DNA of 64,000 nt from Oligoflexales bacterium (lineage in GTDB: Bacteria; Bdellovibrionota_B; Oligoflexia; Oligoflexales; JAPPIL01): contig OZ244057.1 in the NCBI GenBank assembly GCA_965215515.1, forward strand, positions 192,001-256,000, in the 5' to 3' direction. The notes under the pieces are model-generated. The model searched no databases, was not told where the DNA came from, and saw only the letters and a list, made by a program, of their open reading frames with translations. The translations under genes and the position numbers were made by a program. Shown here piece by piece: positions 48,190-51,342 of this stretch. The first letter of the stretch is position 1; every line of letters begins with the position of its first letter.

Positions 48190-51100
48190 GTGGTGCGGAC
48201 GAGAGCGGGTTTAAGTTTGGTGGAGTTGATGGTCGCGGTGGCGGTTATCGGCATTTTGGTGGCCTTGGCGCTGCCGCGTTATCATGCTTTCTTGGCGCAG
48301 GCACGGCGGGGGGAGGCGAAGAGCAACCTCGCCCATCTGGCTAGTCTGCAGGCGGTGTATAAGATCGAGCACTTCAGGTACTACAGTGGCTCCGCGTTGC
48401 TCGCTCCTGATGGTGGTATCGGCTACAAGAATGAGGACGGTACTAGGGGTGATTGTGGGGACTACGCCGATGATCGCGATCTGGGGTTGAATAACCATCT
48501 GGGTTTCCGTCCGCAAGCCTGTGGACAGTTACGTTATTTTTATCAGTTACGTCCTGGTAATGTTGCGGTTGCCTTTGCCTATGCCGATGCTGAGGGCAGG
48601 TATATTTATCCCGATTGTCATGGCGGGGGGAGAGAGGAGTGTGACTATACGCGGGGTGATGCGGTGAGGATGGCGTTGCGCGATGCCAAACCCACGGTCT
48701 GCCGCAACATCACCAAGTACTGCCCCGCGGGAATGGGGACACCACCTCCGCCGCCTCCGCCAACACCAACACCACCGCCTCCGCCACCATGTGATCCGAC
48801 AACACAGTGCTGTGATGGTAATACCGAGGTGGCTAATACATTTAGCTTAACCTGCAACGGGTGGTGGGGGACGTTCAATGATAGTGCCCCTAATAAGGGC
48901 TGCTGTAGGAGATGCGGATGTACTCCTTGGCAGCCTGCGGTGAGTGATAGTAGGACAGATCCCAACGCCTGTGAGGGCGAATCGAGATATGAATATGAAC
49001 CACAGACGAGAACCTGTAGTGGACCGCCTCCCTGTCCAGCAGCAACACGGACTGTGCAACGGACAGTTAGAGGGACAAAGGATTGCACAGGATGTGTATG
49101 TCCTGATTGGCCTGATCTGCCAGCTAGGACGGATCCTAACAGCTGCGAGGACAGGTTTGAGGACGAAACACAGCGTAGAGACTGTACAGGAACACCCCCT
49201 CCAGGCATCACCTGTTCAGAGACGCGCACTGCGCAAAGGAAAGTCAAGGGGGGAATAATGCCCACACCCTGTTCTGGTCTCCTACAATGGGTAGGCGATC
49301 CATACTGTGAGTGCCAGTGTCTATATGCTACTGCTGCAGAAGCTGACATCACCTGCCCCTCTGCCACACCGACTTGGAATTCCACGACCTGCCAGTGCGA
49401 GTGTCCACTTACTGCTACTGATTGCCCACACGGGGTTGATAGTGCTAACTGCACTTGCAGTCCTAAGGATGAAGGCCAAGAATGCCGACAGCGCAACATG
49501 AGCAACTACTGCTGCAGTGAGGAAGGTACTGGTGGTGTCATTCCCAGCGGTGATAACTGTGATGATGCATACACAATCAGCTGGAACACGGACTTGGACC
49601 CAGATGCGTGTGACTGCTCCGCCATTGAAACTGAGGAGCCCGAAGGATGCAAGGAGGACAACCACAATACCCACTACTGCTGCAGCAATGGGGGCGTGCT
49701 TCAAGATGACCCCTGTATAAATCCAACTTCAGACTACACCGTCATCTGGACGGCTCCTACTCTCTGGACGGTGGGTGGGTGCGTGTGTGCGAAAAAGTCG
49801 ATAGAGGAATGCGATGAGAATACTAACAGCAACTACTGCTGCACTAATGCTAGGGTTCATTCTGTCGATATAAGGGATGATATAAGGAATGATGGTGACA
49901 AACGGTGTATGGGGGGCTACACGGTGAATTGGAACGGGAATAGTGTTCCCCCTAGTTGTGAGTGCGCAACAGGAGTTGTTACGCTGCCACCCGAATCCGA
50001 AGGATGCGCTGAGAACACTAACGGTAATTACTGCTGTGATGCTTCTGATAATATGAGCTCTCATGCAGACGGCGGCTGTGGCGATGATTCCCGCAAAGTC
50101 TACTGGAACTCGGCTAGCGGGGAGTGTGAGTGCTCCGAAGAACCGTCAGATGCTGCCGCAACACTCCCCGAAAAAATACCTACTCCCGAGCCCGAAGTGT
50201 GCGATAACCAATGCGAAAAAACTAAATGTGAAGAGGAGAGTCAGGCTCAGTGGTTTGATATTGACAACAGTGACAGTAAAGCCTGTACATGTGAATGCAA
50301 TGATTCCTCCTACAAATGGGTATACCCTCACTCCCGAGGTTATACCCTTACTTCTACGGCAAACAACGTGCTCAATAGCATCACTACTGCACTAGGAATC
50401 GCTCCCCTTAGTTGCAATCAAGAAGGAGCATGTGTGTGTGACGATAGCGAGGCATGCTGCGATGGCGATGCGATAAGAAGCAGCTGTACCGATGAGCCAG
50501 ATAATAATAATTACTATGTTTTACAAAAGTATCCGCACTGCTGTACGGATTGTGAATGCACACTTACATACCGTGATCTCTGTAAAGGTGTAAGCATGCA
50601 GCTGACCCCAGAAAGTGTAATTTGCCGCAATAGCATACCCGAATGCATGACTAAGGGATATAATCTAGCTGCCACTTCTAAATGGGTAGATGGCTCGAAG
50701 GGGACAACTAAACAGGAAGCTTGTAAGGATACTGGGGGAGGTTGGACTAGCAGTGAATCTTGCGATTGTGGAGATGGTAAGACATTTGAATATAAAGAAT
50801 CAGATTGCGAAGGAGGGTGTGTTGCCATGGCACCTTGCCCTGCTCCTAATAAGATGTTAGGTGGGCATTGCTGCCATTCTTCGATCGAGAAAAGTGATTA
50901 CGACAACTGTACCCAGGCTATGGGGGAATGGCGAAATGATTGCACGTGCATCTGTCATGGCGAAAAAGAATTTGTTAAAGATTCTAAAGATAGTGTTTGG
51001 AAGTGTGTATATCAACATACGATATACCAAAATTGTTTTACGCAAGCAACCATAGATGGAAATCAAAACATTGTGTACCTCCCAACTGATCCAAAACATT

Positions 51101-51342
51101 TGACTGGACAACATGAATGGAAAAAAGAATGTCTTGGGGATGACTATCCCACTCTCGTTCAGCATGGCGATGATAGCGCCATGCAGGAAGCTCTACAAAC
51201 ACTACTTAATTGTGCTACAGAGGCTGAGAAAAAAGAAGGTAACATGCATGGTTTTATAACTGCAGCTAGAATCAGAGGCGGATTAAATAATCTTTGCCCT
51301 TCAGGAGAAAATATAAATGATCTTGTGATCTACCTTGAGTAG
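48190..51342 (+). CDS. type IV pilin N-terminus fused to polyproline linker and long Cys-rich repeat region (1050 aa)
   Basis: Class III signal RAG|LSLVELMVAVAVIGILVALALPRY...ARRGEAKSNL; PPPPPPPTPTPPPPPP; dense Cys modules. Confidence 0.88.
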   Translation: MVRTRAGLSLVELMVAVAVIGILVALALPRYHAFLAQARRGEAKSNLAHLASLQAVYKIEHFRYYSGSALLAPDGGIGYKNEDGTRGDCGDYADDRDLGLNNHLGFRPQACGQLRYFYQLRPGNVAVAFAYADAEGRYIYPDCHGGGREECDYTRGDAVRMALRDAKPTVCRNITKYCPAGMGTPPPPPPPTPTPPPPPPCDPTTQCCDGNTEVANTFSLTCNGWWGTFNDSAPNKGCCRRCGCTPWQPAVSDSRTDPNACEGESRYEYEPQTRTCSGPPPCPAATRTVQRTVRGTKDCTGCVCPDWPDLPARTDPNSCEDRFEDETQRRDCTGTPPPGITCSETRTAQRKVKGGIMPTPCSGLLQWVGDPYCECQCLYATAAEADITCPSATPTWNSTTCQCECPLTATDCPHGVDSANCTCSPKDEGQECRQRNMSNYCCSEEGTGGVIPSGDNCDDAYTISWNTDLDPDACDCSAIETEEPEGCKEDNHNTHYCCSNGGVLQDDPCINPTSDYTVIWTAPTLWTVGGCVCAKKSIEECDENTNSNYCCTNARVHSVDIRDDIRNDGDKRCMGGYTVNWNGNSVPPSCECATGVVTLPPESEGCAENTNGNYCCDASDNMSSHADGGCGDDSRKVYWNSASGECECSEEPSDAAATLPEKIPTPEPEVCDNQCEKTKCEEESQAQWFDIDNSDSKACTCECNDSSYKWVYPHSRGYTLTSTANNVLNSITTALGIAPLSCNQEGACVCDDSEACCDGDAIRSSCTDEPDNNNYYVLQKYPHCCTDCECTLTYRDLCKGVSMQLTPESVICRNSIPECMTKGYNLAATSKWVDGSKGTTKQEACKDTGGGWTSSESCDCGDGKTFEYKESDCEGGCVAMAPCPAPNKMLGGHCCHSSIEKSDYDNCTQAMGEWRNDCTCICHGEKEFVKDSKDSVWKCVYQHTIYQNCFTQATIDGNQNIVYLPTDPKHLTGQHEWKKECLGDDYPTLVQHGDDSAMQEALQTLLNCATEAEKKEGNMHGFITAARIRGGLNNLCPSGENINDLVIYLE

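Follow-up and report, generated by a model that had tools for sequence, protein, structure and literature searches.

The 64,000-nucleotide (nt) stretch analyzed here (the window; positions 192,001 to 256,000 of contig OZ244057.1, assembly GCA_965215515.1, from an Oligoflexales bacterium) contains a gene at 48190..51342 whose product joins a type IVa pilin to a very long cysteine-rich tail. This giant pilin belongs to a real, intact and lineage-specific family of modular type IVa pilins in which the carrier is gene-converted, the tails are mosaics and a metzincin-ankyrin gene is coupled to each pilin gene. We see an even chance that the family is a recombining repertoire of modular pilins that serve as variable adhesins on display by the type IV pilus machinery; display, binding and processing are steps that we infer. 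The features of the locus are listed here, with lengths in amino acids (aa) and residues numbered from the GTG at 48190.

47986..48189 (+): conserved 5' block, common to the paralogs (blastn and upstream alignment)
48014-48031 (+): 18-nt palindrome in the 5' block (upstream alignment)
48043-48055 (+): GC palindrome in the 5' block (upstream alignment)
48127-48137 (+): first poly-A tract of the 5' block, A9 in two close copies, A10 in five and A11 in four
48177-48184 (+): second poly-A tract, just before GGGAAG, A7 in ten copies and A8 in the giant pilin copy
48190..51342 (+): giant modular pilin gene, 1050 aa from GTG 48190, stop codon at 51340-51342
48190..48738 (+): type IVa major-pilin-like module, residues 1-183 (supported by profile hidden Markov models (HMMs), by sequence matches in the PDB and by the fold of the AlphaFold model)
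48739..48789 (+): Pro/Thr-rich linker, residues 184-200, with Pro runs at residues 185-191 and 195-200
48913..49263 (+): two six-Cys units of 56-58 aa, residues 242-299 and 302-357 (CxC..W..C..QTR..C.G..C..G.K.C)
49474..50139 (+): four six-Cys units of about 50 aa, residues 429-650 (C..N..YCC..C..W..CxC; motif and unit alignment)
50140..51339 (+): C-terminal part, residues 651-1050, with no segment of at least 90% identity common to intact paralogs from residue 667
51355..52473 (+): partner gene, a 372-aa lipoprotein with lipobox LSSC, the motif HEIGHAFGLGD, ankyrin repeats and a ..WGELKKE tail

The open-reading-frame list gives one open frame across 48190..51342 (+), with a GTG start. The ribosome-binding-like sequence GGGAAG directly abuts 48190 and the public gene call (P0001, 1049 aa, MRTRAG..) begins one codon downstream, so that GTG 48193 is the likelier start, giving the leader MRTRAG/LSLVE (the slash marks the cleavage site). 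An assembly chimera is unlikely, because the pilin-plus-tail layout is intact at 11 other loci in this genome and at 6 loci in two genomes of the same genus. Contigs assembled from short reads show no difference over 50147-51690 (runs X1 and X3) and 50147-52518 (run X2). The contigs of runs X1, X2, X3 and X5 are fragmented across the parts common to paralogs, and none of their pieces listed bridges the join at the Pro linker (48729-48750), which neither supports nor refutes the joining of pilin and tail. A 1-nt omission at 48177 in the short-read contigs reflects the A7 tract of paralogs mapping onto the A8 tract of the giant pilin copy.

The first 183 residues resemble a complete type IVa major pilin. 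An earlier note on this DNA, made from the sequence alone, had pointed to a prepilin leader (G/LSLVE, with Leu at +1) followed by a pilin-sized domain, and profile searches, PDB comparisons and structure prediction all agree. The leader and mature end (MVRTRAG/LSLVE, Leu at +1, Glu at +5) are those of a class III signal peptide. Pfam N_methyl matches residues 3-28 with 21.4 bits in the whole protein (cut-off 21.2) and 24.8 bits in a 200-aa piece, TIGR02532 scores 20.4 against a cut-off of 16.3, and NCBIfam finds PilA_Myxo (E 1.2e-10) and GspG (7.3e-7). A phmmer search of the module against PDB sequences gave 20 chains at E<=1, with Myxococcus xanthus PilA (8tj2_C) the best at E 1.3e-8; geopilins and the PAK and gonococcal pilins were also matched, GspG only at 0.021. 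In an AlphaFold2 model of the giant pilin built with a 46-sequence family alignment, residues 1-180 have 10-residue block means mostly of 57-90 (one block 49), and the module is predicted to form a long alpha1 helix (residues 10-64) and a four-stranded sheet (strands at 117-172). Foldseek found no PDB match to the full model at E<=0.001 (top, 1oqw_A, E 0.19). VIA-align, run on Foldseek's candidates for the module, aligned it with PAK pilin 1oqw_A (Z 6.0, 113 residues aligned, rmsd 3.4), M. xanthus PilA 8tj2_A (Z 6.0, 119 residues, rmsd 4.0, 24% identity) and Shewanella PilA (Z 5.0), and with a model of the type II secretion system (T2SS) pseudopilus at Z 3.5. Tip adhesins of the PilY1/PilC type have a C-terminal PilY1 beta-propeller and are not pilins. 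We rejected that identity for the present protein, which is itself a pilin and in which Pfam finds N_methyl plus a weak ComP_DUS match only.

The layout is that of a modular pilin: module at residues 1-183, linker at 184-200 and tail at 201-1050. The polyproline linker that the earlier note placed at 48739-48789 is indeed present, and it marks the first limit of the stretch common to the paralogs, five of which lose similarity at about residue 194-200. The tail is as Cys-dense as that note had described. The protein has 94 Cys among its 1050 residues, 6 in residues 1-183 and 88 in the remainder; across the 1065 open frames in the genome that are 300 aa or longer, the median is 1.57% Cys, and only 16 frames reach at least 6%. 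The tail is acidic and hydrophilic (C 10.4, T 9.4, D 8.2, G 7.6, E 7.4 and F 0.9%), contains no CxxCH motif and has an even Cys count (88).

By every sequence search made, the tail stands outside the named families, as had been proposed. Pfam and NCBIfam, run on five pieces, gave no match in residues 201-1050 even at E<=10. A phmmer search of these residues against 1.84 billion representative proteins gave 9 matches, 5 of them encoded in the same genome; the four non-self matches are one 983-aa metagenomic relative and three short fragments, none named. The best feature score in the ESM Atlas was 0.75, under the useful range. The label "eukaryote-like", with its likening of the modules to thrombospondin type 1 and epidermal growth factor repeats, found no support: N_methyl was found by HMM scan, and TSP_1, EGF or any other Pfam family was not found in the tail at E<=10. 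Given the lack of Pfam and NCBIfam matches and the near-absence of relatives among 1.84 billion proteins, the TSP1/EGF reading has no support in the sequence.

The modules themselves are those that had been pointed out. The two W..RTDPN.CE..Q.R.C patterns begin at residues 247 and 307, and an HMM built from the two 56-58-aa units detects 26 copies, spread over 15 of the 51 family proteins. Modeled alone with 13 unit sequences, the first unit (58 aa) is confidently predicted to fold, with a mean pLDDT of 86.7 and three long strands. Foldseek found no PDB match to this model at E<=0.001, and VIA-align against 48,161 chains gave 56 at Z>=2 and 0 at Z>=5. The ranking was weak throughout: G5 domains at Z 3.5-4.0, cystine-knot factors at about 3 and thrombospondin repeats (TSRs) at 2.1-2.7. 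As modeled, the 58-aa unit is a flat, three-stranded, disulfide-stapled module whose shape is analogous to TSR and G5 stalks, with kinship not demonstrable. It resembles TSRs in its six Cys, its Trp and its Arg/Thr-rich strands, and its predicted sheet is elongated. The hallmark of TSP_1 is a WxxW ladder of Trp residues. In contrast, each of the giant pilin's two units has a single Trp and no WxxW, and Pfam TSP_1 does not match; W-x5-W occurs in some paralog units. Like G5 domains, the unit would build rods, although there is no Pfam G5 match at E<=10.

The four YCC units also stand: the strict pattern gives three (residues 487, 541 and 606), and the unit alignment adds the one at 432 (CRQRNMSNYCC). 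This type of unit is also present in the frameshifted copy P0008 and in four intact paralogs, which makes five further family sequences with it in the same genome. Units of the C..G.W..CxC kind were found at 845 and 907, and W-x(2-12)-CxC occurs nine times. The parts of the tail that AlphaFold predicts with confidence are residues 241-300 (block means 81-87, one 69), 631-650 (74-75) and 671-710; the YCC units are mostly of low confidence, residues 631-650 excepted. A likeness of residues 671-716 to the LT-IIb B subunit was rejected as too weak (Z 3.9 over 44-45 residues).

The giant pilin is one of many in its genome, a single contig of 2.18 Mb that is 94% complete. A motif scan and tblastn of the genome found 12 intact family members of 582-1197 aa with 6.2-9.0% Cys. 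The additional pieces are one copy split over three frames, three small N-terminal remnants and one 3' remnant in the window. N_methyl matches 24 proteins in the genome: the 12 intact giant pilins, 2 family fragments, 5 short pilins, 4 T2SS pseudopilins and 1 other large protein. This last one, outside the family (G000:C1:75775-75843, -), lies in an open frame of 557-647 aa with 3.6% Cys. The split thirteenth member, at about 1598000-1600925 (-), has pieces of 145, 182 and 727 aa, and a partner lipoprotein gene comes after it here too. This member is a pseudogene or else a copy that is switched by frameshifting.

The pattern of similarity among the paralogs suggests that the carrier and the tails evolve in different ways. 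The 5' block with the start codon is present in 11 of the 12 long copies. By blastn against the 11 other loci, similarity of 90-97% to 10 close paralogs starts 129-204 nt upstream of the start and ends near the Pro linker (about residue 194-200) in five and near residue 300 in the other five. The twelfth paralog is divergent (77% over 182 nt). Among 11 paralogs, the pilin module has a median dS of 0.095 (0-0.18) and a dN of 0.030, whereas the partner gene adjacent to the same 11 modules has a dS of 1.35 and a dN of 0.52, with 27 of 55 pairs saturated. The contrast in dS between the module and the very next gene therefore indicates that the 5' block and pilin module are homogenized by gene conversion and not merely constrained. 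For the module pN/pS is 0.28, compared to 0.88 for residues 201-300 and 0.5-1.3, on few changes, for other shared segments. Concerning the control of expression, a sigma-70 scan upstream of the gene found no site on the + strand, and the counts from this and a terminator scan were no higher than in shuffled sequences. A sigma-54 promoter in the 5' block was rejected by eye, as the -12 element does not fit.

The tails, judged from their shared segments, are mosaics of pieces common to different paralogs. We found 53 directed segments of at least 150 nt and at least 90% identity joining the tails of 8 of the 12 paralogs; the other four share none. Such segments cover 42% of the giant pilin's tail and, taken together, are shared with seven different paralogs. 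Residues 201-299 match five paralogs (93-97%), residues 374-521 match one (98.6%), and residues 439-536 (96.3%), 573-666 (90.7%) and 603-666 (97.9%) each match another. For residues 667-1050 there is no segment of this length and identity in common with any intact paralog. The earlier note had proposed a search for paralogs with common ends and different middles; the paralogs found are 12 intact copies with mosaic tails. With mosaic tails on a constant carrier, one machinery could present many alternative tails.

Each giant pilin is accompanied by a second gene. A homologue of the partner gene follows all 12 intact paralogs on the same strand, either overlapping the pilin gene or lying no more than a few dozen bases from it. 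Pilin then partner is also the order at all six distinct long-pilin loci retrieved from two genomes of the same genus; a seventh locus runs to the edge of its contig. The lipobox Cys26 of the partner is invariant. Metzincins are recognized by an HExxHxxGxx(H/D) zinc motif and a conserved Met downstream, and the partner has both: in alignments of 14 and 13 sequences H170, E171, G173, H174, G177, D180 and M205 are invariant. The remainder of the protein consists of 1-3 ankyrin repeats (Pfam Ank_2, E 3.2e-8) and the conserved ..WGELKKE tail. A profile of its N-terminal domain gave, among PDB chains, the snapalysin-type 1c7k_A (E 0.013) and 4hx3_A (0.014), an archaemetzincin (0.37) and matrilysin (0.42). 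NCBIfam gave an M6 domain (0.0088) and snapalysin (0.077), both far under the cut-offs, and Pfam found no peptidase match in the partner protein. Among 5.8 billion clusters the N-terminal domain has 18 relatives, all without a name. The partner is like the snapalysin-type metzincins (M7) in its HExxHxxGLxD motif, with Asp at the third ligand position, and its conserved Met. It differs in being a lipoprotein with C-terminal ankyrin repeats, and in matching below the family cut-offs. Two partner paralogs (L039:717-2381 (-) and L040:859-2493 (-)) carry extra C-terminal dockerin-like and FlgD_ig-type domains; precomputed Pfam for P0051 lists PF00404 and PF13860.

The family has a narrow distribution. 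A pilin match of some kind is present in 39 of 41 genomes (40 relatives and the source genome). Among the relatives, open frames longer than 580 aa occur only in two genomes of the same genus and one of the same family. When genome contigs were scanned with the family alignment (80 of 141 confirmed loci kept), the full module was matched only by same-genus loci. A word-index search returned 42 proteins of 579-1087 aa with 6.2-10.7% Cys, all without a name and 8 of them from the source genome; a pilin leader opens most of the 42. A pattern search of genome contigs with the single giant pilin gave 49 pattern matches, none related. Across genomes, the Cys positions are conserved.

We propose the following for how a giant pilin might work. 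The carrier would be a complete major-pilin-like module with a class III signal peptide, Glu5, an alpha1 helix and a disulfide-bonded beta head, tied by the Pro-rich spacer to a payload of about 850 aa that would consist of many small disulfide-stapled modules. Prepilin peptidase would cleave after the Gly, and the tail would be oxidized in the periplasm. The type IV pilus machinery would then take in the pilin module, most probably at the tip of the filament or close to it because of the bulk of the tail. Outside the cell, the thin, rod-like tail could thereby bind the surfaces of hosts or prey. The genome encodes the components to be expected: eight PF00437 ATPases (PilB-, PilT- and GspE-like), one prepilin peptidase (PF01478) and three secretins (PF00263), all over the cut-offs, and a VKOR-type oxidase. 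DsbB was not found by a PF02600 search of the 94%-complete genome. A Pfam search for PilY1 in the genome gave no match, yet the control was also 0 of 14 genomes, so that this result is uninformative. An adhesin role for the tails would be plausible.

Several points weigh against display as variable adhesins. Expression of the giant pilins and their display on a filament are predictions from sequence, and the passage of a pilin with an 850-aa tail through the assembly machinery or a secretin is conjectural. Pfam, NCBIfam, phmmer and the ESM Atlas found no known binding domain in the tail. In the AlphaFold model 687 of the 1050 residues have a pLDDT <50, and for this reason the picture of a thin rod rests on one modeled unit. 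The type II secretion cluster could use the giant pilins instead of type IV pili (T4P), and the partner, judging only from gene linkage, probably processes, releases or cooperates with the tail. Lastly, the poly-A length differences lie between paralogs and not within a population.

Two of these points lead to the first alternative, which we consider unlikely: the pilin module might be an export carrier that brings the protein to a T4P or T2SS pseudopilus, after which the metzincin frees the tail as a secreted or surface-bound effector. The tie of a protease-like gene to every copy (12/12 and 6/6) speaks for this alternative, as does the invariance of H170, E171, H174, D180 and Met205 in 14 partner sequences. 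A T2SS cluster with four pseudopilins lies at about 1.706-1.712 Mb, and the exposed Pro/Thr linker is an obvious candidate cleavage site. However, purifying selection acts on the whole 183-aa head, beyond the signal peptide (pN/pS 0.28), and the module is nearer to type IVa major pilins than to pseudopilins. In addition, the protease activity of the partner is only predicted, its best profile match being snapalysin at E 0.013.

A second alternative starts from the systems that vary a surface protein by gene conversion. In Neisseria, one pilE locus is expressed, the pilS donors are silent, promoterless and partial, and the pilin head itself is varied. The giant pilins are similar in that a constant 5' pilin part is joined to variable 3' parts exchanged by gene conversion among copies. 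They differ in that 11 of 12 copies have both the 5' block and a full frame and in that the varied part is an appended tail. We therefore rejected variation by silent cassettes of the Neisseria type: 11 of 12 copies have the 5' block, and the partial pieces are four remnants and one frameshifted copy. Even so, giant pilins could be subunits of the filament body whose tails coat the pilus, in which case the repertoire would serve antigenic variation against host immunity or phage and not the choice of ligand. The module is of the major-pilin type and shares 39-50% identity with the genome's short pilins over about 140-150 residues, and a linker at its C-terminal end would leave the head at the filament surface. 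The design of a constant 5' and variable 3' part, with gene conversion, also fits a variation system. Nevertheless, we regard this as improbable, more so than the export carrier. If every subunit had an 850-aa tail, steric hindrance would make passage through a secretin difficult, the genome has five ordinary short pilins that could provide the major subunit, and, unlike Neisseria silent cassettes, essentially every copy has the 5' block.

The last alternative, that these proteins bind metals or have a redox function in the periplasm or anchored in a membrane, or else form a selfish repeat family in decay that plays no part in pili, is very improbable: CxC and CC motifs are frequent, insertion sequence (IS) and Rpn-like genes lie beside several loci, and there are one frameshifted copy and four small remnants, but CxxCH is absent, the tail Cys count is even, 12 frames of 582-1197 aa remain open, Cys positions are conserved across genomes, and an acidic hydrophilic tail is typical of extracellular disulfide domains.

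A bolder version of the variable-adhesin reading would make the pilus a programmable display. Its parts would be a gene-converted carrier (a promoter with length-variable poly-A tracts plus the pilin module), recombining disulfide-rich tails and cognate metzincin-ankyrin enzymes, and a host-associated or predatory cell could switch a tail together with its matching protease. We think this possible and rather doubtful. The length of the poly-A tracts may set which copies are expressed, which is speculative. If true, such a display would be a pilin-based analogue of antigenic variation or of receptor-binding-protein diversification, undescribed for type IV filaments.

Modular pilins as a kind are already known. 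The parts of Raynaud et al. 2021 (PMC8179133) on which we draw describe modular type IV pilins, including Streptococcus sanguinis PilB and PilC, CofB and ComZ, with adhesion as a common theme; many of their extra modules lack a database signature, and the most extreme multi-domain example given there has 860 residues in total. The premise of the earlier note that large pilus adhesins are separate proteins is thus outdated. As far as those parts of the paper go, the giant pilins share with these proteins an N-terminal pilin module, a short linker and a grafted module presented by the filament. In contrast, the giant pilins reach 1050-1197 aa, with a Cys-rich payload of about 850 aa that has no signature, and 12 recombining paralogs, a gene-converted 5' block and a metzincin-ankyrin partner are not described in those parts. 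A recognizable functional domain, one mark of the modular pilins, was not found in the extra module by Pfam or NCBIfam at E<=10. Because modular pilins have been described in that paper, as far as we draw on it, the kind is not new; the scale, the unassigned Cys-rich payload, the concerted and mosaic repertoire and the dedicated partner appear in none of the papers searched. We found no description of a giant Cys-rich pilin family in the literature, with the limit that Dataset S1 of PMC8179133, outside our search, could hold members.

A second comparison comes from the same phylum, Bdellovibrionota. The sections used here of Caulton et al. 2024 (PMC10769870) describe the mosaic adhesive trimer (MAT) fibers of Bdellovibrio bacteriovorus as phage-like trimeric fibers with mosaic, diversified tips. 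On that account they resemble the giant pilins as a multigene mosaic surface repertoire proposed for varied targets. They differ in that MAT proteins are not pilins, and phmmer and the ESM Atlas showed no sequence relation to the giant pilin tail.

The window contains a second, inverted and decayed copy of the 3' end of the cassette, recognized from inverted repeats, tblastn and open reading frames (ORFs).

44161..45091 (-): inverted decayed copy of the cassette 3' end

Two pairs of inverted repeats define it, 44554-45091 with 51180-51717 (538 nt, 98%) and 44161-44560 with 52160-52559 (400 nt, 96%), and the repeated stretch takes in the end of the pilin gene (its final 163 nt) together with the partner gene. 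The copy keeps the last 52 codons of the pilin tail at 44932-45087 (tblastn 92% over residues 999-1050), so that the end of the giant pilin recurs in a remnant. Its partner gene is broken by a deletion of about 440 nt into ORFs 44548-44916 and 44247-44534; contigs in runs X1 and X3 have a matching 449-nt skip. The inverted 3'-end copies could mediate inversion of the intervening 6 kb. Between the arms lie a YhgA/Rpn-like gene at 45276-46283 (+), which carries a 12-nt tandem repeat (46058-46171) encoding (GKAE)n, and an IS200-type Y1 transposase gene at 47201-47647 (+) (Pfam E 3.6e-31), just upstream of the conserved 5' block. Pfam found no match in the ORFs at 46506-47189 (-).

Other genes in the window deserve brief mention. 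A second YhgA/Rpn-like (Transposase_31) gene lies at 37566-38708 (+). We dropped these genes as candidate recombination helpers: the genome has 18, of which 3 are beside giant-pilin loci, too few for enrichment. Directly downstream of the cassette, at 52561-56900 (-), are three consecutive genes (389, 405 and 579 aa) whose products have hydrophobic N-termini and no Pfam match. A class I fructose-bisphosphate aldolase, an enzyme better known from eukaryotes, is encoded at 12442-13452 (-) (Pfam Glycolytic, E 1e-139). A protein with DUF285 repeats, a family typical of host-associated bacteria, is encoded at 33721-35211 (+) (Pfam E 6.1e-72).

Work on type IV pili has mostly treated them as uniform filaments that have a few accessory subunits. 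In this bacterium, 12 of the 24 pilin-type genes are giant fusions. The family is a concrete example of concerted evolution of a carrier and mosaic diversification of a payload inside single genes. Should the giant pilins prove to be displayed, they would reveal how large a cargo a pilin can carry, as well as new small disulfide-rich folds. Their display would also show how a bacterium with a small genome, probably dependent on a host or prey, can build a large binding repertoire on one machine.

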